Shown here piece by piece: positions 2,354-47,175 of a stretch of 64,000 nucleotides of DNA. Under the pieces are notes generated by a model. It was not told the DNA's origin. It saw only the letters and a program-made list of their open reading frames with translations, and searched no databases. Made by a program: the position numbers and the translations under genes. The stretch is from Candidatus Bathyarchaeota archaeon (GTDB taxonomy: Archaea > Thermoproteota > Bathyarchaeia > Bathyarchaeales > Bathycorpusculaceae): the NCBI GenBank assembly GCA_963775685.1, contig CAVZJV010000014.1, positions 288,001-352,000 on the forward strand, in the 5' to 3' direction. Position 1 is the first letter of the stretch. Every line of letters begins with the position of its first letter.

Positions 2354-2820
2354 AAAAGCTGACTTTACTCAACGGGTAAGTAGTACCCATTAGCTGTCAG
2401 TAGAATTAGTAGATAACCCCTTAATTTTTTTATTTCAATCGAATCGGGTTGCAGTGCCGATGACTTTCAGGGTTTTATAACCCCTATTGCATTGGCGACG
2501 GTTTCTTGTACTAAAATGTTGAGCGTCGCTGGTTTCAACTAATGTGTATTTTGGGGCTAAAATTTTCTCTTAATCATTTTGTGGTTTTTTCCAAAAAACT
2601 TGGCGTCGGGGGGTCTTAAATGTTTAAGTGATAAATGACATTTTCTCTCAGTAGCTTGATAACTATCGAAAATCTAAAGTGGAAAAAATGCACTAAAGAA
2701 ATATATATTTTAACGAGTCAATATGGCGAAAGATGCCACTTTGATGTGACAACTAATATACTTGAACGAATTAATTTCCCAACCATTCCAACTCACTCTC
2801 AAGGGAAAGGAGCAGGCGTC

Positions 2821-4503
2821 TTGCTTAGCAAACTCTGGAACACACTAAATCGCTTATCCTCGAAAAAATCCCTAAAGTACACCCTCTATCTCTCAGCTAT
2901 CATAGTTTTTTTTGCTATAATTTTAATTCCACCTATAATCGGCATACTAGTTAACGTAGGAACCGTGAGTGCCGTCATCAACCAGCCTTCTGAAGTTAAC
3001 GTAGCCCTGGGTGCAATCTCAAACTCAATAATCATCGGCTTAATTGTTGCAGCCCTAGATTTAGCCGCTGGTATTCCCCTCGCATGGCTAATCACCCGAG
3101 GCAAGTCAAGATGGCTAAGTGTGCTGGATACTCTTGCGGACCTGCCATTCATTGTGCCAACATCTGCCTTAGGCTACTCGCTTCTACTGTTTTGGAGCCA
3201 AAGCCCAGAAGGCATATCAGGAATTTTCGGAACAATTATTTCACCAGGCTACGTGCTGGTTATGCTTTTACATTTCACATTTTCATTTCCAGTTGTTGTG
3301 CGAATAGTGGTTGGAGCAATGTTTGACTATAAGATGGAGTATGAACGCGCTTCAAGAACGCTTGGGGCGCCTCCACTGACAGCCGCCCGAACTGTAACTT
3401 TCCCAATTATCAAGCCCTCGCTGCTTGCAGCGTATATTCTTGCTTTTGCAAGGTCGCTTTCAGAAACGGGCGCGACCTTTATCGTAGCTGGAACATTTCT
3501 TAACGGCCCAATTTTCCTGCAAACAGTAAGCAACCAATTCAAAGCGGGTCAAATCTCTCAAGCAACCTATCAAGGCGAAACAGTCTTTGCAAGCTTAATC
3601 CTGATAGGTGTTTCTTTGGTTATTTTCGCTGCAATAACTGTTTTAGGAAAAAGAGTAAAGTTGCCATTTGGACACGGCTTGCCAGTTTTCGAAAAGAAAC
3701 TTAGCTACAAAAAAGCTGCATGGACTAGAAACAGTGTTGCCTTGTTTGTTTTTATTGTGATAGTGCTTATTCCTTCTCTTTTCGTGGCGTTGCCAGCTTT
3801 CCAAGCTATCTCTGAGGGTACTCAGTTAATTCAGGCTTTCACTAGCTCAGGTGTTTGGGCAACTTATTGGCAGAGCCTATTCTTGTCCTATGGTTTAGCA
3901 GTCACTGTTACAATCTTAGGAATCATCATTGGAATACCTATGGCTATACTGATTGCGAGACAAACATTCGGAAAATGGCCCTCAACCATCCTTGACAGTT
4001 TACTTAACATTCCAATTATAGTTCCATCTATCGCTCTTGGTTTATCCTTGAAGTTTTTCTGGCAAGGAACCGGAGTTCCAGAATTTTTGCTGCTTGTTTT
4101 CGCCCACTTAGCGATTACTTTCCCATATTTTGTCCGCTCAATGTCGGCAGCGATGGATCGTATTAGCTTGGATATGGAGGAAGCGGCTAGAACCTTGGGT
4201 GCTAAACCCTTTACGGTGTTTAGGTCAATTGTGTTGCCGCTTACCAAGTACTCGATACTTTCAGGAGCAATCATCGTTTTCACACGAAGCATCAGTGAAA
4301 CAGGTGCAACCTTAGCAGTAGCTACGCATTTGCAGACGACGCCAGTGTTAATAGTTAACTGGGTTAATGCCCTTCGTGGTGTGACGCAGCCGATCGCAGG
4401 TGTAACCTCCTTAACTGTTGGTTTAGCCTGTGGTTTCCTGATTCTTTTTAGCTTGATAATCCTCTTTGTTTTGAGACTTTTAACTAAAAAGGGGAAGGCT
4501 TAG
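2821..4503 (+). CDS. ABC importer permease with duplicated domain (FbpB/ThiP-like)
   Basis: Two EAA loops (ERASRTLGA, EEAARTLGA); probable TTG start at 2821 although the ORF opens at 2635. Confidence 0.85.
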   Translation: MLSKLWNTLNRLSSKKSLKYTLYLSAIIVFFAIILIPPIIGILVNVGTVSAVINQPSEVNVALGAISNSIIIGLIVAALDLAAGIPLAWLITRGKSRWLSVLDTLADLPFIVPTSALGYSLLLFWSQSPEGISGIFGTIISPGYVLVMLLHFTFSFPVVVRIVVGAMFDYKMEYERASRTLGAPPLTAARTVTFPIIKPSLLAAYILAFARSLSETGATFIVAGTFLNGPIFLQTVSNQFKAGQISQATYQGETVFASLILIGVSLVIFAAITVLGKRVKLPFGHGLPVFEKKLSYKKAAWTRNSVALFVFIVIVLIPSLFVALPAFQAISEGTQLIQAFTSSGVWATYWQSLFLSYGLAVTVTILGIIIGIPMAILIARQTFGKWPSTILDSLLNIPIIVPSIALGLSLKFFWQGTGVPEFLLLVFAHLAITFPYFVRSMSAAMDRISLDMEEAARTLGAKPFTVFRSIVLPLTKYSILSGAIIVFTRSISETGATLAVATHLQTTPVLIVNWVNALRGVTQPIAGVTSLTVGLACGFLILFSLIILFVLRLLTKKGKA

Positions 4504-5655: not shown

Positions 5656-6031
5656 AGCAACCAAAAGACGATAGTGGATGCTGATAGTGCTTATCTTTGT
5701 TATCGGGGGTCTTTAAAATATACATGAAATTTTGCATTTTTTTGTGCTTAAAATTTAAATCTAAGTGTAGTATTTCTATGTGAACTAGCTCGGGGTAGTA
5801 TGGGAGAAAATAAGGCAATTGGACAGAGTATACTAGGACGCTTCGTTAAAAATGAAGCTTGTTTCGTTAAAGACGACCATCTTTTAATTAAAGAAAATCT
5901 TGCTTGTTTGTACAGCTTTAATGCAGAAAAATTTAAATATGTTCACGGCAAGGCTTTTGATTATAACAAGTGCAAATTTGGCACTATCTTCAAGCCGGCT
6001 TTAATGGTAGATATTAATGGAGAGAAAAAAT

Positions 6032-6385
6032 ATGCCCTTTGAAGGTCTTATTGCGGGTCTTATTGCGTTCGTATTAATTTTCGCTTCAACTATGGTAATC
6101 TACGCTTTAGGTAAACGGTCAGCCCCTAAAACTACTCTGAGCGAAAACGAGCAAGCCGCCTACGCTTGCGGTGAAAAAGTAATCTTTCACGGAGTAAAAA
6201 TTAATGTATCCCTCTATAAGTACCTGATTTACTTTGTAATCTTTGACTCATCTGTTTTAGTTCTCGCTTTTGCTTCATTCGCATTAGTAGGCGCAAACTC
6301 CACAAACCCACTTCTCCTAATCATCTACCTTGGCATAATTCTTGCCGCAGGCTTAGTCGTTGTTGAAGGAGGAAAAGAATATTGA
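6032..6385 (+). CDS. nuoA: NuoA-like membrane subunit of the hydrogenase complex
   Basis: 3 TM helices, YACGE loop, YFVIFD motif. Confidence 0.8.
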   Translation: MPFEGLIAGLIAFVLIFASTMVIYALGKRSAPKTTLSENEQAAYACGEKVIFHGVKINVSLYKYLIYFVIFDSSVLVLAFASFALVGANSTNPLLLIIYLGIILAAGLVVVEGGKEY

Positions 6386-26982: not shown

Positions 26983-29633
26983 TTAAGGGTGTTTTCGGAG
27001 TATTAGAAACCCAACTATTGCTATTGCAACAATTATGGCGATTACTCCTGTCGCCAAGTATGTTAACAGGTCTGCTGTTGTTGCCAAGCTTTGCTGGGGT
27101 GCGGCGGTTGCAGCAGGTGTTACTGTGTCGCTAGCATGGGCATAGGTTGAAGCTGATGATGGCCAATATGATTCTGAACCTGCAAAAGTTGCGGTAATTT
27201 GGTAGTCACCTGATATTTCAGGTGTCCATGTAAATCCGAAGGCGCCTGAGTCGTCGCTTGTGGTAGTCCCGATTACTCTTTGATTATGGTTTGAGTCGAC
27301 AACGCTGATGACAATTTGTACACCTGATGTATGTGTTGGTTTTACCTGTTGTTGATAGACGTATTCCATCCATTTGCTCTGACTTTCGTCAGAAACACAC
27401 GGTAATCCATGGGGGAATGTCGCTGCGACTACGTTTTGTTTTGATCCGGCAGAGACATCCATGACTGTGCCTGTGATAGTTATAGGTGTGTTGGTTGAAA
27501 CTCCGACTGCTGGAGCTGTTACTGTTACTGCGCTTGGTCCTTTGCCGAAGGCATATACTTGGTTGTCGTATGCGTTTAGCGATAGGAGAATGCCATAAGA
27601 GATTTCTGTTGATGTGACGCTGGTGTCTAGTTCGCTCCAGACCAGATTGCCGTTAGTGACGTTTACTGCTAATAGTTGTGCTCCATGGAATAGGGGTGGG
27701 TTGTATTCGTGGCCAATGGCAAAGTAAGCTACGTCTGTTGAGATACATGAGCTACTAAATACCCACAGTGGCCAGATGTCATAAGGCGTTTCAATTCCTG
27801 GGTCACCGATTAGTTGTGTGGTGTTTGTGTACCATTTCACGCTTCCATCTCCTATGTTTTGGCACCAGAGATCTCCTCCTAAACCTTCCCAGAAGATTAC
27901 GCCGTTTCCAAAGTAGGGCTTAAGGCTGAAGAGGTCATAGTGATTTGGTTCGCCACCGTTGAGTCCTGTTAGAGTTTTCTCCCACACTTTAGCGCCTGTT
28001 CGCGTGTTGAAGGCTGCAACAACGTATTAACGTCGTTGGCAATAACGATTAGTCCATTTCCGTATGTCTCAGTAGTTCTTGTGAAGGGTAATAGGGCTGC
28101 TGTTTGTGCTTGTGTTATGTTTTGTGTTATTACCTGGGCACCAGTGTTCATATCCATAGTTGCTATGACGAGCCAACCAGGTGTTTCTCCTCCAACTCCT
28201 TGTCCGTGAACGAATCCACCTGTCAATACAATTTCGTTGCCAGTTATTGAGTTCATCGAGAGGGCTGGATTTATTGCTGCACCTGAAATATTAGTTGCTA
28301 TTGGCATAGACCACATTTCTCCATTACTCATCGGGCGCACTGTGTTTACTGATGGATTCCATTGTTGACTTGTTTGTCCAATCGCCATCGTCATGTTAAC
28401 ACACGTTAAATGAGGTCCTGTATTTGTTACTGGTACGTTTTGTCCAGCGACTGGATGTGTCATTTCAGTTCCGACGGTGTTGTTTATGTAGTAACCTATC
28501 ATGTTTCCGCTTTCATCAGTTCTAAGGCTCAGAGCAGAACCGTTGACGACACTAAGGACATACTTGCCGGTTAAACCATCGTACATGTTCCATTGTGTTC
28601 CGCTGTTTACGACTTGATTGCCGCCGGTATCCGCTGCAGGCAGCGTTCCAGTTGTCCAGATGTATGGTCCGACAACGCCGTATTGATTAATTGCTTTAAA
28701 GTTTACGTTCATGCCGCAACGCAATGCGTTAGTTGTGTTTATCACCCAAAGATCCTGTCCTGTGTAGATGTCAACAGCTTTGACTCCGTTGGAGTAGGCT
28801 GTGGTTGTTGTATACCATGTTGAATACATTATGCCGTTCATTACAACTGGGGCGTATTTGGGTTCATACTGAGAGGTTGACCAGTAGTGGCTGTCTTGTT
28901 CATTTCCGCCTAGGTCTCCACCGACTACACCTCCTTCTGCCCAAGGTTTCGTCCAGAGAATATGGCCGCTGTTAACTGATGCAGTATATGGGTTGTAGAA
29001 GCTGCTGACGTTGTAGCCGCCAGTTTGCGCAAAAGAAACTGAACCATATCCTAGCCATGCACCGGTCAGAGTATACCAATTCTGCACATTCTGTGCCGTA
29101 ACTGGGGTCTGCCAGTAGCTTGTCGGAAGTGGAGTGAACGGATATCCTTGGTGCTCTACTGGGTCTTGTTGTACCGTAAGTGATGCTATGTTGCTCTCAC
29201 TGGGTGCATTAATAAGGCCTGCCCAACGACTGTTTGTTGCAAGAGTTTGTCCACCATAGAAGAATTGGAAAGTATAAGTGCCCACTTGGTCTGGAACGAT
29301 GTTTGTGTATGAGCCGCCAGTAAGATCGGATGTGAATGGTCCTAGGGTTTTAACTGTTCCATCAGGTAATGTCTCTCTGACTGTCATGTTCACTGCGTAT
29401 TCCACAGTTTCCATAGGTGTTGCTAAGAAGAAGTTTACGTTGACTGTTTGGCCGACTCCGACTGGATTAGGAGCAACGTTAATGTAAGCATACGTTGGAA
29501 TGACTGTTCCCGTTGGAGGATAGACTTGTCCTACCACGTTTGGTGATAATGTCAGCGACGTTGCCATTGAAATTGTTAAGAGTGTTACAATCAAAATAGC
29601 CATAGTTTTATTTTTTAAATTTTGCATTTTCAT
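26983..29633 (-). CDS. Large secreted, membrane-anchored PQQ-like beta-propeller protein; frameshift near 28010
   Basis: Signal peptide, propeller repeats (AVDIYTGQDLW, AVNVTNGNLVW), C-terminal TM plus RKHP; split over two ORFs. Confidence 0.8.
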
Positions 29634-29908: not shown

Positions 29909-30217
29909 GGCTGGCGAGTTGGTGTGTGGCTGTCGGATCCAAATTTGGGTCTGAGGAAACTCCGCCCACATGTAGAATTGCAGTCCCTTGGGACAGCGCG
30001 AGAGCGTTGGCAACGGAGCAGAAACGAAACGTCCACCCAGACTTGGCGATGAGACATTTGTGATGTCGAGTGCGCTGGACTGGAAACGGTGAAACGGCCG
30101 TCCTGCAAGTGGAAAGGGCAAACAGTCGCCGATGAAGTATCTACCGGAAGGCGCGGGTAGCCCGATTAGCCGAATGCCACAGAAAACAGAAGGCGGGTTA
30201 CAACCAACACACCAGCC
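29909..30217 (+). ncRNA. rnpB: Archaeal RNase P RNA
   Basis: CR-I GAGGAAACTCCGCCC, CAGAAACG, GGTGAAACGGC, CR-V ACAGAAGGCGGGTTA; the 5' GGCTGG..GTTGGT pairs with the 3' ACCAAC..CCAGCC (P1). Confidence 0.93.
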
Positions 30218-30228
30218 TATTTTACTAA
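30190..30228 (+). repeat. attL-like direct repeat (3' end of rnpB)
   Basis: AAGGCGGGTTACAACCAACACACCAGCCTATTTTACTAA, 37/39 identical to 35661-35699. Confidence 0.9.
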
Positions 30229-30242
30229 TACACCAGCCCTGA

Positions 30243-31422
30243 TTACTCATTGCGTTTTTTCGCCTTCCTAAACAGCATAATACCTTGAGGAGTAGTGACA
30301 ACATACTGCCAACATTGCTCTATCAGTTCGCCGGCTTCTTTAGCGTCTTTAGCGGTTGCGTGATGATAGCTTTCAGCGTCATCGTCAACGGGAACCAGAT
30401 GAGTATAGACTAATGTGCTGTTTATGTTGCGGTGGCCCAGTAGTTCTTTTACGTGAAGGATGTTTCTTGTTATTGCGTATTCTTTTGGTAGCTTTGAAAT
30501 GTCTAAGACTGTGGAATCTTATTTGTTTGAGGCGTGGATTTTGCAGTTTGATTGATAAGCGTGTTTTTGCCGGTCATATTTCCAGCGAAAAGCGTTAAGG
30601 TTGCCGTTTCCAAAGATGTACTGGTTTGTTTTGGGTAGCATTAGGAGTCTTGACATTAATCGGCTTGATATTTTTGATTTGTCTTGGATTGCCATGTTTT
30701 TCTGCTATGCATTTTAGGGTAAAGTTTTCTTCGTCTAGATCAGTCCATTTGCATTGCCATAATTCGCCTATTCTGAAGCCTGTTTCTTTGAGTGCTAGCA
30801 AACAAGTTCCTACTTTTTTACTGCATGCCAGCTACTAGAGCATCTACTTCTTTTTCCAATGGTACAAAGGGCAGGGATTTCTTGTTTTCATAGTATGGCG
30901 GTTCCCAAGATATTCTCAGCATTTCCGCAAAACTATCATAGGCGCTTACAAAGTTTTGTTTGTATCCGTTGCTCCATTTCTCGTTTGTAGCAAGAATAGT
31001 TCTGTACAGCTTCAGGATCATGCAGATTAACGCCGCTTTTCTCGGAAAGATACCTTAGCAGTTTAACCCTTGTTTTTATCGTTGCATCGCTGTACTTCCC
31101 TTTCTTCTTTAGATACCAAAGGAAATCAATGATTTCGCCTTGAATTTGCGTTTGGTGTGTTTGGTTTCGGCTAATCTCCACAACATCGGTTTTTTGTTGT
31201 GGATCCAAATTTTTCGCCTTGTCTTGCAGGATTGCGCTTAATTGGTGATCGCTATTTGTCCTAGACAATTTAAAAGGGTTTGGTTCACTGAATCTGAGGT
31301 TACAATCATTGCAGTAATAGCGCTGTAAGGTTAAGCCTTCAGCAGTTTGCCTAGTTCCAGCTTTGTCAAAAGGACCTAAAGATCCACATTCTGGGCAGTT
31401 TAGAGGTTGAGGTTGTGAGTTT
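30243..31422 (-). pseudogene. Tyrosine integrase with N-terminal Zn ribbon, multiply frameshifted
   Basis: Fragments CPECG..RYYCNDC, KETGFRIGEL, KHG, FHSLRH, LLGHRNINSTLVYTHL and C-terminal LFRKAK in different frames. Confidence 0.88.
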
Positions 31423-31630
31423 AAAGGATGTTCATAAGCGCCTTACGGATGCTAATATTCAGTTAGCTAATACTAATATCAACTTTGCAAAAGAGGTTAA
31501 GGTGTTAAGTCCTAGTGTGAAGGCTCTGACTGAGACTTTGCTTGGAGCTACGCAGCAGAAACAGCAACTACAAGAAACCAATGTTCCTTCTGAAACTCAT
31601 AGTCAACCGCTTAACCATATCTACGAGTAA
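31415..31630 (+). CDS. Hypothetical coiled-coil fragment
   Basis: 71-aa ORF only. Confidence 0.3.
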   Translation: MSLKDVHKRLTDANIQLANTNINFAKEVKVLSPSVKALTETLLGATQQKQQLQETNVPSETHSQPLNHIYE

Positions 31631-32121
31631 GCGAATCTTAGCCTTCTTATTTTTCTTTTGTATCGGGAAACTGGAAAGCGCTTTCAAATACCCTTTCTTG
31701 CTCTCGGGAGTACCCTTTTAATTACTGTGCGCTGGCTTTAATGGACGCCTTACTTGGATCCGCTTATTTTTAAGTGTTGAACGATTAGCGCGCTGGCCTG
31801 TCCTTAAATTGAAAAGCTTATAACCTAGAAACTGGGTCTCGTGCCATTGAGAATCAATCAAACAAGAAAGTGATCCCTGCGAGACAGGATGAAAACGAGA
31901 CCATGTATGCGCCGGTGCAGGTTTCTCCCGTATCAATCACCTTTTTTCCATTTTTAATCAATCCTTTCCAGATCAAATGCAAATATTTTGGGATACAAAA
32001 CCCGCTCAAAAGCTAGTTTGTGCAAGTTAGTTAAAAGCTAACTTCAAAGGATAACCAGCATAAAAACCCTTTTGATTTCAAGTTACGCTAAGCTCTAGCG
32101 CACTTAATATATAAGAGGCAA

Positions 32122-32931
32122 TTGGCTTCACCATATAACGTGCCACGCAAGCGTAAACAGAACAACCATTTATTCAAATTCATAGTTGTTTTGTTGCTTG
32201 CAGGTATAGCGTTTAGTCTAAACACCATAATAAATGGCACTATAACCCTAACTCCTACATCACAACCAATTAAGGGAAACAATCTTGCTCCAATGTTCCA
32301 AAATGGAATAGCTAATTGTCGTTGGGGTGATGCAAACTTACATGGTGGGAATCCTTATTATGGCACTACACAAGCTGGTGAGATCGACTACAGCAATCTA
32401 TCTCCTAATGGCTATCCTTCGATGAAAATTTATGCTTCTGCACCTGAAATTGATGAATACTTTTATGCTGTGCATCCCGGAGATCATATTGTTTTTTGTG
32501 CTTGGCTGAAAACAGATGGAACTTCTGCTATTCCTTACGGTGTCAATATTGGAATAGACTTTTATGGCAACGGATACAGCATTGACGGTTTACCAAGTAG
32601 CGGTTCAGAACTTAACTATTTTTCAGGAACCACTTGGAATCCTACATCGCCTTCTAATCCTCATTGGGTTAGCACAACTGGTACTGCTGCAGGCTATAAT
32701 GTGATGTATGTCCGTTGGGGAACTACAAATTGGGTGCAAATGCAATATGATTTTATTGTTCCAAATGTTGCATATACTAAATGTCCGTACATAGCTTATC
32801 CTCATACAATTCCATCGACATACATTAACTCTGTAGTTCTATGGGTTGGCTCTCAAGAAGCTGTTGGTAATTTAGTTTATGGCAGTCATACCGCTTGGAT
32901 TGCGGATTCTGAATTTTATATTAACCCATAA
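32122..32931 (+). CDS. Membrane-anchored, secreted beta-rich protein (island cargo)
   Basis: Basic N-terminus plus TM helix; G/Y/W/N-rich carbohydrate-binding-like body. Confidence 0.7.
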   Translation: MASPYNVPRKRKQNNHLFKFIVVLLLAGIAFSLNTIINGTITLTPTSQPIKGNNLAPMFQNGIANCRWGDANLHGGNPYYGTTQAGEIDYSNLSPNGYPSMKIYASAPEIDEYFYAVHPGDHIVFCAWLKTDGTSAIPYGVNIGIDFYGNGYSIDGLPSSGSELNYFSGTTWNPTSPSNPHWVSTTGTAAGYNVMYVRWGTTNWVQMQYDFIVPNVAYTKCPYIAYPHTIPSTYINSVVLWVGSQEAVGNLVYGSHTAWIADSEFYINP

Positions 32932-33313
32932 ATTCCTCTCATAACAATGGAATCAACATGAAACAGCTCCAGTGTGGTTCGCAGATTCAGAACTTCATAT
33001 TAATGTTTGTAGATATGTCGATAAGTTCTTATTCGCTGCCACCCTTCCGCATCTCCCGCACACAACTCCCTTTTTCTTAAAAGGACGCGTATAAACTGAT
33101 TTCACAAATTGTCTCTAAAATTTGTACTTATTTTAAGAATTTGCTAACGATATTAACTTTATAGCCAATGTAATACAGCAGCAGCCACGAAAGGAAGAAA
33201 ACAATTTACCGGTTTCAGACGGTTATTCTCAGCTTAGCTGTATGTATGAATAGTTGATTGTTAAATGCTTATTGTGTTGTGTTATCGCTTAATTTGCCTA
33301 CTTAGTCGGTGCA

Positions 33314-33333
33314 TTACAACCATTACACCAGCC
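33314..33333 (+). repeat. Internal partial att copy
   Basis: TTACAACCATTACACCAGCC, 18/20 identical to 30198-30217. Confidence 0.7.
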
Positions 33334-33350
33334 CAAATCTATAACAGAAG

Positions 33351-33638
33351 GTATATGAAATAACAGAAAACAGCCCTTCAGTTACATACACTAATTCTGA
33401 GGCTTTAGAATATTGGAAAAAGCAATTAGCCAACCGAGACGGCAAAACTGCTGTTCGATATCGCCAATACTTCAAGGGCTTTGTTGAATACATAGGTATG
33501 AAGCCAGACCAAATACTAGCGCAACGAGAACTTGAATTAAGAAGTTTAGACAGAAAAGTGCAGCGGGGATTTGAAAGTGAATTCAAACCCTACCTCGCCA
33601 AGAAAAGAGATGCAGGATTCGAAAGTTTTAAGGCTTAA
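33351..33638 (+). pseudogene. N-terminal core-binding fragment of a second tyrosine integrase
   Basis: EALEYWKKQL..KTAVRYRQYFKGFVEYIGMKPDQILAQRE..; no canonical start and no catalytic domain. Confidence 0.55.
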
Positions 33639-33669
33639 AGCATTCAATGTAGGATAGTGGCAGGTATGC

Positions 33670-34248
33670 ATGTATGATAAAAAAAGAAGACAATTGTTAT
33701 CGATACACTTTTCTTAGCTACACTTATACCGCTTCTAACTCTTGGTTTTTTGTCAGCAAGTAACACCTATATATTCTCAAGAAACTTGACGGTAAAAGAT
33801 ACAACGACCTCTAACATGGGCAAAGACCCATGTTTGATTTGTATTATGGAGATGTCTATTTTGGGGAATTGATCATTCGGGTTGACTCACCACTTAGAGA
33901 AGTCACGAATATCGTCTTGATACGCCAAACACCCATGAAGACTATGTCGTAGACTCAATACTTCTGAAGTTCAGTACAGGCGTTAACAATCCAACGAACG
34001 TTTACATGGAATGCAATTACCCGGCCGTTCCAACTACCTTCAAACAAGACAATTACGGAACAACAATAAGGATAGATGGCATGGAAGTTTACCATGGCGG
34101 AAGTGCACCGATTAACTTCATGGTCGAAAGCTACCGCAACGTAACTTTATCCATAACTGCTGACATCACATACCACGAAACATCGCTCTTACAATTAACC
34201 TGCTCTATGGCACATGTTTCAGTGTACACCCAAATTGAAACCAGTTAA
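33670..34248 (+). pseudogene. Frameshifted membrane-anchored hypothetical protein
   Basis: Hydrophobic N-terminal segment near 33690-33760, and a C-terminal ORF at 34006-34248. Confidence 0.4.
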
Positions 34249-34479
34249 ATACACTACAACTCGGCGAGCCGTGCTCGTCTCGCACGTTCCAGACGACGGT
34301 TATGCGCCTCGGTCGTCGTAGCGGATAATCCCACCCTAAAGGGGATCTCCTCGTAAGTAAGAACTCTGTCTTGCCGGCATCTAATCTTTTTAGTAGAGGA
34401 ATCTTGACTTGAGTAATTCAACATGCGTGAAAGGGCTGAAAGACAACACATATATTTAGAACAAACCAAAGAGTAATAG

Positions 34480-34776
34480 GTGACTTATATGATAAATTTT
34501 GAAGATATTATGGGATTACAGGTAGTTACTTCAAGTGCAAAAATTATTGGAGAAGTGAAGGGAGCAAAAATTGACACCGAGACTTGGGCGATAAAGTTCT
34601 TGAACGTGAGGCTTACTGGTGATGCTGCTGAGAGTCTTGGGTTGAAGAAGAGGTTTAGAAGTTCCAGCATATGCATTCCAGTTAGCATGGTTCAAGCTGT
34701 CGCTCATGTTGTGACAATCAGTAGGTCTATTGAAGAGTTGGAGAGCTCTCAAGAGATTGCTGAGTGCAAAGACTAA
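34480..34776 (+). CDS. PRC-barrel domain protein
   Basis: IMGLQVVTSSAKIIGEVKGAKIDTETWAI..IPVSMVQAV. Confidence 0.8.
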   Translation: MTYMINFEDIMGLQVVTSSAKIIGEVKGAKIDTETWAIKFLNVRLTGDAAESLGLKKRFRSSSICIPVSMVQAVAHVVTISRSIEELESSQEIAECKD

Positions 34777-35034
34777 AAACGCAGTAGGGCTTTTATGGAT
34801 TCAGTGAATAGTTGAATAGCGTTGATTAAGTTCTAATTTTTTCTTTTTTTTTTGTCAATTAGCTGGCTGCATGTGTAAAACAGAGGAAATAAATGTAGCT
34901 TTGCGTGCGCCCAAACAATCTGTTCCTATTGAATCATTGATGAATTCAAAACCAGCGTAGGTTATACTAATCTTACCAAAGAAGCACTAATTACTGCTTG
35001 AATGCTTATTAAATTAGACAGTAATTAATGTTAC

Positions 35035-35445
35035 ATGAAAAAATCGGCAATAATAATACTGGCGGTGGTTGTTTCTGCAGTCATTGTTCTATCAGTTGTT
35101 GGCGCAGCCTTACTCTCAGGAATGTTTGGAGCAGTATTTACCGCAACTGAGCCTGCTCAAATCAAAGAAGCTTCAATTGCAACAAATTTTGGTGGCGGAT
35201 ACAGTCTAGAAGCTGGAGCATATGCGCTGGAAGGAACCGCTCAAAACCTTGGACAAAAAGACGCAAAAAACGTTAGAGTAGATATCACTTTCTTTAACGC
35301 TGATACTCAACAGGAATTAAAGACACAAACAATCTCTTTTGGCGACATTGCAGCAGAAAGCACAAAAAACATCAATCTTTCTATTGAATTTCCAAGCGAT
35401 TCAGTGCGTGTTACTTTTACAACAACCGACCCAGTATGGGAATAA
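35035..35445 (+). CDS. Secreted Ig-like (FxLYD-like) protein
   Basis: Signal/TM helix, GTAQNLG..AKNVRVDITFFN. Confidence 0.65.
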   Translation: MKKSAIIILAVVVSAVIVLSVVGAALLSGMFGAVFTATEPAQIKEASIATNFGGGYSLEAGAYALEGTAQNLGQKDAKNVRVDITFFNADTQQELKTQTISFGDIAAESTKNINLSIEFPSDSVRVTFTTTDPVWE

Positions 35446-35660
35446 ATTGAATTTTACTCAACTATTTTTTTCTTTTTGAGTTTTATTATCTATCGCTCGA
35501 CCAAACAGATTGAGACATTAATCCTTGCTTTACAAAATTAGGGTTTGCGGAAGACGTATAAAATCGGGGAGTGAGCGTATAAAAACTTATAACTAGTAAA
35601 AAACAATTAAGAACTCAGGAATTTGAAATGATTTTTGACCCTAAGAAATTACTAAGCCCA

Positions 35661-35699
35661 AAGGCGGGTTACCACCAACACACCAGCCTTTTTTACTAA
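35661..35699 (+). repeat. attR-like direct repeat (displaced rnpB 3' end)
   Basis: AAGGCGGGTTACCACCAACACACCAGCCTTTTTTACTAA. Confidence 0.9.
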
Positions 35700-35822
35700 C
35701 TCGCACCGTGCTTAACCTTTTGATACAAATGTGCGTAATAGTGCGCGGACGCTTTGATCGCTTGAAAAGCAAATTATAAAAGGATATAAAGAATAAGGGA
35801 ATAAAAATTACTTAGATTAACG

Positions 35823-36578
35823 ATGAAAGTAGGCCTTTTTGGGTTTGGTAGAGCAGGTAAAGCCGTTGCTACAGTATTGCTGCAAAGCGAAGAAACTGAT
35901 CTTTGCTGGGTTATCAGAAAATCAAAAGTTTTGCAGCATCGATCAGTTCCAGAGTTTCTTGGTATTAAGCATGATGACGACCAAGGATTAATTTTCCCCA
36001 AAGGTGAATGGACACCTGAGCAGCTTTTCGACAAACATCCTGTTGACGTTATAATCGATTTTTCTTCTGCTGATGCCGTGTTGTCTTATGGAAAAGAGGC
36101 GGCAAACAAGGGTATAGCCATTGTTACCGCAATATCAGCTTACCCCGATGAAACAGTTGCTTTGCTAAAAAACTTGTCACGGAAAACAAGAGTACTCTGG
36201 TCTCCTAATATAACTGTAGGTATCAATTTTTTAATGCTGGCAGCTAAAATCCTTAAAACTATTGCTCCTTACACAGATATTGAAATAATTGAAGAACATT
36301 TTAAAAACAAAAAAGGTGTTTCAGGTACAGCTATAAAAATTTCAGAGGCTTTATCACTGCCAGATACAGACATTAAATCTGTTAGAGCAGGCGGTATTGT
36401 CGGTCGCCACGAGATCATCTTCGGTTTTCCCTTCCAAACAGTGCGTTTAATTCATGAATCTATACAAAGAGAGGCATTTGGCGATGGGGCATTGTTTGCT
36501 GCTAAGAATCTTGTCGATAAAAAGAAGGGGTTTTATTCTATGGAGAACCTGTTAATACCCTATTTTAACATGAAATAA
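35823..36578 (+). CDS. dapB: 4-hydroxy-tetrahydrodipicolinate reductase
   Basis: GFGRAG, IIDFS, SPNITVG, EEHFKNKKGVSGTA, SVRAGGIVGRH. Confidence 0.88.
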   Translation: MKVGLFGFGRAGKAVATVLLQSEETDLCWVIRKSKVLQHRSVPEFLGIKHDDDQGLIFPKGEWTPEQLFDKHPVDVIIDFSSADAVLSYGKEAANKGIAIVTAISAYPDETVALLKNLSRKTRVLWSPNITVGINFLMLAAKILKTIAPYTDIEIIEEHFKNKKGVSGTAIKISEALSLPDTDIKSVRAGGIVGRHEIIFGFPFQTVRLIHESIQREAFGDGALFAAKNLVDKKKGFYSMENLLIPYFNMK

Positions 36579-45819: not shown

Positions 45820-45880
45820 TTTGCTTACGGTTCAGTCCCGGAGGACCACATCCCAACGGACTATGTTTGTCCGCCTGCAA
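45820..45880 (-). promoter_or_regulatory. Structured rpl15e 5' leader (candidate eL15 r-leader)
   Basis: Hairpins GCGGAC-aaacata-GTCCGT and GTCC-tccg-GGAC, the second flanked by GGGATG and TGAACC; BRE/TATA-like AGAAAAGGTTTATTT at 45906-45920. Confidence 0.6.
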
Positions 45881-45945: not shown

Positions 45946-47175
45946 CTATTTGGGTTTCCGGAACAGTCTAAAGCCCTCAATATCGCAAACGTATTCGAAG
46001 CCGGCTTCAACAAGTTTTACTGCTTCGTCGACTGAGGCTGCTGTTGCTGAGTAGTAACGGTCTGAATCAAAGTTTATCAAGTGAGTGTAGACAGTCGTTG
46101 TTAGGATGTTCTTGTGGCCTAATCTTTCCTGGACGTGTAGAAGCGATTTTGTTTTATGATACTCGTTTGTTGCAAACCAATGTCGAAAGGTATGGAAGGT
46201 AATTCGGTTGAGGTTGGGATTCTGCATTTTAGCCGCTACTCTTCGTCTAAGCGCTCTAAAGGAACTGCTGAAGTGCATCAGGCCGAATGGGTTTGGCGGT
46301 TCACTTTGAAAGATGTAATTCTTCGATATTTTGGGCAATGAATTGATGGTTGCAGTTAACTTGGCGCTTACTTTAAACATCCTGGGCGTTCCATGCTTTA
46401 GAGTCTCGTTAAGGGTGATTGCGTTTCTTTCAAAGTCTATGTCTTTCCACTGGAGAAACCAGGCTTCGCTAGAGCGCATTCCTGTTTCCTTCAAGATTAG
46501 CAGGTAGGCTGATTGTTTGCTGTAGGCCGCGTTGATTAAGCAATCTATTTCTTTCTCGGTTGGAACGTAGGGTATTTTTCGTTCAACCTGGTATCTTGGG
46601 GCTTTCCAGGTTCCGCCTACAATGCTTAGGTATTTGCTGTAGGATGCAACGGCTAAGGCTCTGGTTGCTTGGCTCCATTTTTTCTTAAAGATTGTTGCCT
46701 TTACTGATTCAGGATCCAGCAGGTTGGCGCCGGCGCTCTCTAATCTTTCCAGGTAACGAACATACAGTTTGGCTGAGTTTTCGTGTCTTCCATCGTTTTC
46801 TAAGGCACTTAGGAACTTTATGAATCGTCCTCTGCTTTGCTGAGTTATCTCTTTATCTCCCGCAACAGTTTTGATTTCTGTTGTGGAATCCAAGTTTTTC
46901 GTCTCCTCGACGCATATTTGGCGATTATAAGGTAAGGCTACTACAGTATTTAATGACGATGACGAATTTTTTGGTAATGGTTGCCCCGAGAAACGGAATC
47001 CACAAGATCGGCAAACCCAACGCTGAATTACATCACCCTTGTGATAACGAAGGCCATTACGCCAAATTTTGGCGGATCCGCAGCTGGGGCAGTTGGGAAT
47101 TTGCGAGCTGGCGCCGGCGGATATGCTGCCATCCGATTTACCTATATTAGTACTGCGACTGAGAGCCTCAACCAT
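45946..47175 (-). CDS. Intact tyrosine integrase with N-terminal Zn ribbon
   Basis: CPSCG..QRWVCRSC; ETGMR, KHG, HTFRH, LGH, VYTH. Confidence 0.93.
   Translation of the reverse strand: MVEALSRSTNIGKSDGSISAGASSQIPNCPSCGSAKIWRNGLRYHKGDVIQRWVCRSCGFRFSGQPLPKNSSSSLNTVVALPYNRQICVEETKNLDSTTEIKTVAGDKEITQQSRGRFIKFLSALENDGRHENSAKLYVRYLERLESAGANLLDPESVKATIFKKKWSQATRALAVASYSKYLSIVGGTWKAPRYQVERKIPYVPTEKEIDCLINAAYSKQSAYLLILKETGMRSSEAWFLQWKDIDFERNAITLNETLKHGTPRMFKVSAKLTATINSLPKISKNYIFQSEPPNPFGLMHFSSSFRALRRRVAAKMQNPNLNRITFHTFRHWFATNEYHKTKSLLHVQERLGHKNILTTTVYTHLINFDSDRYYSATAASVDEAVKLVEAGFEYVCDIEGFRLFRKPK

Follow-up and report, generated by a model that had tools for sequence, protein, structure and literature searches.

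The 3′ ends of tRNA and tmRNA genes are the classical attP/attB attachment (att) targets of the tyrosine integrases of genomic islands and proviruses. Here we describe a 64,000-nucleotide stretch of a Candidatus Bathyarchaeota archaeon (contig CAVZJV010000014.1, positions 288,001 to 352,000, hereafter the window and numbered from its first letter), in which rnpB, the gene for the archaeal RNase P RNA, is followed by what we read, with a probability of roughly 85%, as two or three mobile elements, now decayed, which each inserted in its last ~20–30 bases and lie stacked one behind the other. As in the tRNA and tmRNA islands, an integrase adjoins the junction, a copy carried by attP appears to rebuild the gene, a partial copy being retained at the other junction, tandem, layered insertions occur at one site, and paralogues of the integrase in the same genome (G000 here; 3.06 Mb in 14 contigs) sit on tRNA genes. 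The difference lies in the target, which is the part of rnpB encoding CR-V and the P2/P1 3′ strands of a single-copy essential ribozyme.

Among 68 integrated elements of Thaumarchaeota, 39 lie in tRNA genes, 15 in intergenic regions and 14 at the 3′ ends of protein genes, as given in the sections of that survey drawn on here (PMC6563490). Those elements share with the present ones att repeats, tandem integration in one target and boundaries checked against empty sites, while the targets reported in these sections do not include rnpB; the terms ‘RNase P’ and ‘rnpB’ occur nowhere in the same portion of its text, supplementary tables aside. The ‘suicidal’ integrases of the SSV type, which carry attP inside the integrase gene, are likewise archaeal tyrosine recombinases that target RNA genes (PMC7253208 and PMC8371274, in the passages used here). 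Some integrases found at rnpB, namely those transcribed in the same direction as rnpB (co-directional), resemble this SSV type in that their open reading frame (ORF) runs through the att core: in genome G008 the ORF spans 2768–4036 with rnpB ending at 2805, and in G024 it spans 2764–3702 with rnpB ending at 2803. In contrast, the convergent type that adjoins rnpB in the window, which we call type A, is not split by integration, its four intact ORFs of 382–430 aa (G426, G409, G283 and G359) lying beside attL and wholly on the element side of it. A further parallel is provided by the dusA-specific integrases, a monophyletic clade tied to one non-tRNA target gene in many genomes, although those integrases target the 5′ end of a bacterial protein gene and the present ones the 3′ end of an archaeal ribozyme gene (PMC4482086, as far as the part used here goes). 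Full-text literature searches, which reach neither subscription journals nor supplementary tables and so leave room for a prior mention, returned no paper in which rnpB figures as an attachment site, and rnpB appears in the matching papers only as a phylogenetic marker; the terms ‘RNase P’ and ‘rnpB’ are likewise absent from the consulted text of a 2021 review of archaeal tyrosine recombinases (PMC8371274) and from the text of a Bathyarchaeia virus preprint. The recurrent use of rnpB by several integrase lineages in Bathyarchaeia is a variant of the tRNA/tmRNA theme, and apparently a new one.

The left boundary of the inserted DNA is defined by three features:

29914–30212, plus strand: rnpB, full length (cmscan, RF00373)
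30190–30228, plus strand: putative attL of the newest element, consisting of the rnpB 3′ end (CR-V and the P2-P1 3′ strand) and the element-side tail TATTTTACTAA
30243–31530 (upper coordinate approximate), minus strand: pseudogene of a type-A Zn-ribbon tyrosine integrase, convergent with rnpB, delineated by three-frame translation

The check with Infernal that an earlier note on this DNA, made from its letters, had proposed gives a match to RF00373 that scores 190.5 bits (gathering score 84) and covers positions 1–288 of the 288 of the model. It is the one such match in the 3.06 Mb of G000, and its score falls inside the 171–199 bits of full-length relatives in the genus, so that the target gene is intact after insertion. 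The left copy of the repeat completes this full-length rnpB, and P1 may be extended by 5 bp through pairing of 29909–29913 with 30213–30217 (GGCUG/CAGCC), as read from the sequence. The same note had seen the last rnpB nucleotides and the tail recur at 35661–35699, and this is confirmed, 37 of the 39 bases being identical. A fuzzy scan of all 14 contigs on both strands with up to 8 mismatches yielded no copy besides these two; the 39-mer is therefore not a dispersed repeat, one of the outcomes that the note had named as speaking against an insertion. A third, degenerate copy lies at 33306–33344 (67% identity over 39 nt; a 21-nt core with 3 mismatches), and the three direct repeats of the rnpB 3′ end bracket the inserted DNA. 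In a simple, rough check of P1/P2 pairing, the duplex energies of the 3′ strand with the rnpB 5′ strand were −29.3 kcal/mol for the left, −31.7 for the distal and −21.8 for the middle copy, the left strand being roughly on a par with the distal one and the middle strand weaker. The window holds no tRNA genes, and the target is rnpB rather than a tRNA or tmRNA gene.

The integrase beside the left copy was recognized correctly in the earlier note as to family and place, its stop codon (30243–30245) lying 14 nt from 30228, but it proves to be a pseudogene with five single-nucleotide frameshifts. Its motifs (the Zn ribbon CPEC...CNDC, HSLRH and LLGH..Y) are scattered across all three frames. Catalysis by tyrosine recombinases depends on a set of residues comprising Arg, His-x-x-Arg, His/Trp and Tyr, and the corresponding RIGE, HSLRH, LLGH and LVYTH are readable in the window copy, both across frames and in a frame-guided read-through. 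Compared with the intact 430-aa gene of G426, to which it is 89% identical at the nucleotide level, the window copy has single-base indels near 31005, 30826, 30677, 30557 and 30486, its first ~35 codons are degenerate and no longer alignable, and its longest uninterrupted piece amounts to 168 aa. The indels look like real mutations because they lie outside long homopolymers, and the frameshifted copy is taken to be a fossil, no longer functional. PF00589 matches the intact G426 relative with 49.6 bits (cutoff 27.1) and the other three integrase types found at rnpB with 57.7–74.8 bits; PHROG integrase families are matched as well.

That a clade of Zn-ribbon integrases would use the rnpB 3′ end as its attachment site and leave a full-length rnpB behind, as had been proposed from the window alone, is strongly supported by its distribution among relatives. 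A scan of the genus (120 genomes, with records labelled Candidatus Bathyarchaeia) identified 14 loci in 12 genomes with at least 74% identity to the window integrase. In 13 of the 14, judged by coordinates, the integrase is oriented convergently to rnpB, either the full gene or a 3′ fragment of it, at a distance of 33–258 nt; for the remaining locus the contig, 2 kb in all, breaks off 144 nt past the gene. All matches in the genus at 47% identity or less are located elsewhere than rnpB. Wherever the type-A clade is present, the tail TATTTTACTAA follows rnpB (G015, G426, G254, G427, G392 and G274). A second, independent scan, of named genomes, retrieved 14 loci at 36% identity or more, all from records labelled Candidatus Bathyarchaeia or Bathyarchaeota except for one ‘uncultured archaeon’. 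In 12 of them rnpB adjoins the integrase (8 convergent, 4 co-directional), while two archaeal loci at 28–29% identity have a tRNA gene beside the integrase and not rnpB. In G000 itself, three paralogues, intact or split, are convergent on tRNA-Leu(tag), tRNA-Pro(ggg) and tRNA-Leu(cag).

A FastTree phylogeny of 28 integrases, with two truncated rows left out, unites the convergent rnpB clade with a co-directional one, also at rnpB, in which the Zn-ribbon region is missing (support 1.0), and nests this rnpB-linked group among the tRNA-linked paralogues. Two more rnpB-linked lineages fall separately in the tree, type B (G024, G003) and type C (G008, G294, G215, G357 and G383). The type-A elements differ in what they carry: the element at rnpB in G254 (L118, 2219–5536) encodes a 1105-aa fusion of a Prim-Pol with an MCM helicase, a plasmid- or virus-like replication module, and that of G409 a P-loop protein of 555 aa that is unrelated to it and matches no Pfam family. 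By eye, a 185-aa ORF at 5795–6352 in the rnpB element of G024, which belongs to another family of the order, resembles the TATA-box-binding protein.

Empty sites, which the earlier note had suggested seeking through rnpB–dapB synteny, were found in two genomes. In G017, rnpB is followed by a 620-nt spacer and a dapB-like gene 79% identical to the one that starts at 35823 in the window, with neither an integrase nor a second copy of the repeat between them. The bin G291 holds two related versions of the locus: on contig C10 rnpB is directly followed by the flank, and on C11 the same flank comes after a 5.66-kb insert that carries an integrase. The repeats of the C11 insert are identical at 28 of 28 positions and the flanks of the two contigs are 94% identical over 1345 nt, giving a base-exact pair of an empty and an occupied site for the co-directional sister clade. 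Two or three full-length rnpB genes on different contigs occur in the bins G291, G364 and G426. They represent two related populations in G291, and in G364 the two contigs overlap, with 99.96% identity over a length of 2.6 kb.

The 5.5 kb between rnpB and the dapB-like gene contain the following features, in addition to those given above:

30229–33305: predicted type-A element, 3.1 kb, with the pseudo-integrase (minus strand) and a 269-aa ORF (plus strand)
32122–32931, plus strand: 269-aa ORF with an N-terminal hydrophobic segment, putative cargo of the type-A element
33306–33344, plus strand: degenerate third rnpB 3′ end, read as the type-A attR and the former attL of an older element
33345–33626, plus strand: N-terminal fragment of a co-directional type-C integrase, ~94 codons, found by tblastn
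33345–35660: probable remnant of a type-C element, 2.3 kb, with the integrase fragment, a PRC-barrel gene and a 136-aa ORF
34480–34776, plus strand: PRC-barrel gene, 98 aa (PF05239, 22.1 bits against a cutoff of 21.2)
35035–35445, plus strand: 136-aa ORF at the presumed right end of the older element, with a sub-threshold match to DUF2393
35643–35704, plus strand: distal junction in three segments (arm, core and tail)
35823–36578, plus strand: dapB-like gene in the host flank (DapB_N and DapB_C above cutoffs)

Most likely the Zn-ribbon element ends at the degenerate copy 33306–33344 and not at the distal one, to judge from the sequences on either side of it. Type-A right ends lie 4.6–6.5 kb downstream of rnpB in G409, G283, G359 and G392, and to the left of the shared TTAC they are not rnpB-like, reading instead AGGTGCGTTAC, CGGTGTATTAC or AG(T/C)GGAATTAC. 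This left-arm signature matches the middle copy of the window, whose left part CGGTGCATTAC resembles the right ends in G392 and G409, while its tail CCCAAATCT resembles the tails that precede co-directional integrases. Directly behind it, the fragment 33345–33626 is 40–46% identical to five type-C integrases (G215, G357, G008, G294 and G383; best E value 8e-21), all of which start right at the rnpB 3′ end. The PRC-barrel gene has copies downstream of rnpB that are 80–84% identical in G001, G291 and G274, with more distant copies near rnpB in G012, G286, G392 and G002, and in G274 an ORF 90% identical to the 136-aa one occupies the equivalent place ahead of the distal copy. The 269-aa ORF matches no Pfam or PHROG family, has matches only below 0.9 in the protein Atlas and has no homologue in the other rnpB loci fetched; contigs from soil metagenomes match 32229–33334, and one of 2467 nt, from other organisms like the rest, diverges at 33334.

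The copy at 35661–35699 is most likely an older junction that has been displaced, as its composition indicates. The junction consists of the arm ATTACTAAGCCCAA (35647–35660), the rnpB 3′ core (35661–35688) and a type-A-like tail (35689 to ~35704), and a reading frame that starts with an ATG 37 nt upstream of the core runs through both arm and core. In G024, G003, G291, G368, G141, G008 and G294 this arm forms the end of elements whose integrase is co-directional. Over 57 nt the junction is 96.5% identical to its equivalent in G368, where a remnant of a type-A integrase comes next; the homology ends near 35704 in the window, and blastn detected no older type-A integrase remnant beyond that point. 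In G368 and G141 the order is rnpB, a co-directional integrase, the three-part junction of arm, core and type-A tail, and the type-A integrase remnant. It is this layout that identifies the distal tail of the window as type A, and that shows layering to occur, a newer element entering the rebuilt rnpB and shifting the older junctions further downstream.

By analogy with integration into tRNA genes, the attP of each element would carry a copy of the rnpB 3′ end, and recombination would rebuild a full-length rnpB at the left junction while displacing the previous 3′ end downstream. For type A the crossover would lie to the right of TTAC, and we propose that it falls inside TTAC..CACCAGCC. At the present locus an old type-A insertion would have come first, leaving the ~16-nt tail at 35689–35704; an element with a co-directional type-C integrase would have followed, of which 33345–35660 is the remnant; and a type-A element with its convergent Zn-ribbon integrase (30229–33305) would have arrived last, its integrase acquiring the five frameshifts since. 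The repeats, the broken integrase, the link between the clade and rnpB and the empty sites are established, whereas the order of these events, the position of the crossover and actual recombination at this site are what we infer.

The earlier note had taken the same 5.5 kb for a single element with attL at 30190–30228 and attR at 35661–35699, integrated by the adjacent Zn-ribbon integrase. Such an element would be close in size to the type-A elements found elsewhere, and its two ends would be the only copies in the genome that are as similar as 37 of 39 bases. The boundary at 35661 is not borne out, however, since the distal copy is preceded by ATTACTAAGCCCAA, the arm of co-directional-integrase elements in seven genomes, whereas type-A right ends have a different left arm; a third copy with the type-A signature lies at 33306–33344 with a fragment of a type-C integrase directly behind it; and the distal copy retains a type-A tail in the manner of the displaced former attL of G368 and G141. 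We regard a single element as unlikely. Still less credible is the notion that the extra rnpB 3′ copies arose by local duplication or gene conversion, or are small RNA or regulatory modules, with the integrase as a bystander, since against the lack of an observed excision product and the 8 of 18 fetched loci with copies but no nearby integrase stand a clade that tracks rnpB in 13 of 14 loci, an exact empty/occupied pair whose insert is bounded by the repeats, conserved element-side arms on the copies and three unrelated integrase lineages at the same base positions.

Several observations weigh against the stacked arrangement that we prefer, or against parts of it. Since the spacer of G017 cannot be aligned with the window, this empty site is syntenic and not base-exact, and the base-exact pair in G291 concerns the co-directional sister clade and not the convergent type of the window; it proves the principle and not the exact element type. 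Being only 67% identical, the middle copy owes its assignment as attR to the similarity of its arm and to its flanks. The PRC-barrel gene of G291 is found within the element as well as in the flank next to the empty site, and part of 33345–35660 might for this reason be host DNA; similarly, the tail at 35689–35704 could be native to the host and not a scar left by an older element. Errors in the assembly might, in principle, account for the five indels. No excised circle and no attB/attP junction was found, the motif of arm and core giving 0 matches in viral contigs, and the public sequencing runs that hold part of the stretch (four runs from one soil study, containing 8–12% of the sampled words) proved at 90% likeness to consist of short soil contigs of relatives, with weak joints seen in one contig each. 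The three one-contig joints (30217>34296, 30228>30319 and 34709>35642) were set aside, their sides being only 23–31 nt long. The points at which soil contigs break off (30228, 33334, 35640–35642, 35688 and 35699) fit the proposed boundaries, although they belong to other organisms and are not junction reads.

How often rnpB is occupied was estimated from an unbiased draw of 16 genomes of the same genus and 9 from other families of the order. Further downstream copies of the genome's own rnpB 3′ end (up to 7 mismatches in 28 nt) were present in 8 of the 16 and in 1 of the 9, and an integrase or its remnant within 1.5 kb in 6 and 1 respectively; four of the drawn genomes without a further copy had less than 6.1 kb of downstream sequence. 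With up to 3 mismatches allowed, a 22-nt motif of arm and core is present in 98 of 401 genomes from the order (~20 matches for a reversed control). As a measure of rnpB occupancy this figure is overstated and was rejected, because it includes an unrelated variant in which the arm is followed by GGCTGGTGC and which in G000 adjoins a tRNA-like fragment and not rnpB. For this reason the motif was cross-matched by hand with rnpB coordinates, which left 23 genomes of the genus with the motif on the contig and strand of rnpB, 0.7–11 kb downstream. Of 18 loci fetched for having the motif, 10 have an integrase or a fragment of one beside rnpB and 8 have none.

Two further occurrences in G000 are recorded here as observations in their own right. 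An orphan copy of the co-directional arm and the rnpB 3′ core, with the P1 variant ACGTCC of other species, lies at C14:197097–197117 on the minus strand, 121 kb from rnpB and on the opposite strand to it, with no type-B or type-C integrase nearby. At C14:2286804–2286825 the arm AAGAAATTACTAAGCCC is joined to what appears by eye to be the reverse complement of a tRNA 5′ half, although Rfam and ARAGORN call no tRNA gene at this position; this 22-mer recurs in 8 genomes of the genus.

A broader reading, which we put forward tentatively and rate slightly below even odds, is that the rnpB 3′ end is a landing pad shared by at least three tyrosine-integrase lineages in the bathyarchaeial order. The 3′ strand of P1/P2 would then be supplied by an element in many genomes, host and elements might co-evolve to maintain pairing of the helices, and co-directional integrases could be read through from the rnpB promoter.

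The surroundings of the locus include two genes upstream of rnpB (26983–29633, minus strand) that encode proteins of 554 and 334 aa, the latter with weak Ig-like and PQQ-like matches; the pair belongs to a hugely expanded family with several dozen paired paralogues throughout the genome at 27–58% identity (tblastn). A second Zn-ribbon integrase of the same family as that at rnpB, intact and of 409 aa, is located at 45946–47175 on the minus strand and ends 73 nt from an eL15 ribosomal-protein leader (45824–45873); no flanking att repeats were found for it, nor any tRNA gene in the window.

If the interpretation given here is correct, rnpB would constitute a third class of structural RNA gene among the targets of site-specific integrases. 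The phylogeny would then record target switching within one integrase family, from tRNA genes to rnpB, accompanied in the sister clade by a flip in orientation and loss of the Zn ribbon. Bathyarchaeia are a major uncultured lineage of sediments and soils, and island finders limited to tRNA and tmRNA genes would miss a common integration hotspot in them. The junctions would also offer a precise attB/attP pair for the development of genetic tools in Bathyarchaeia.

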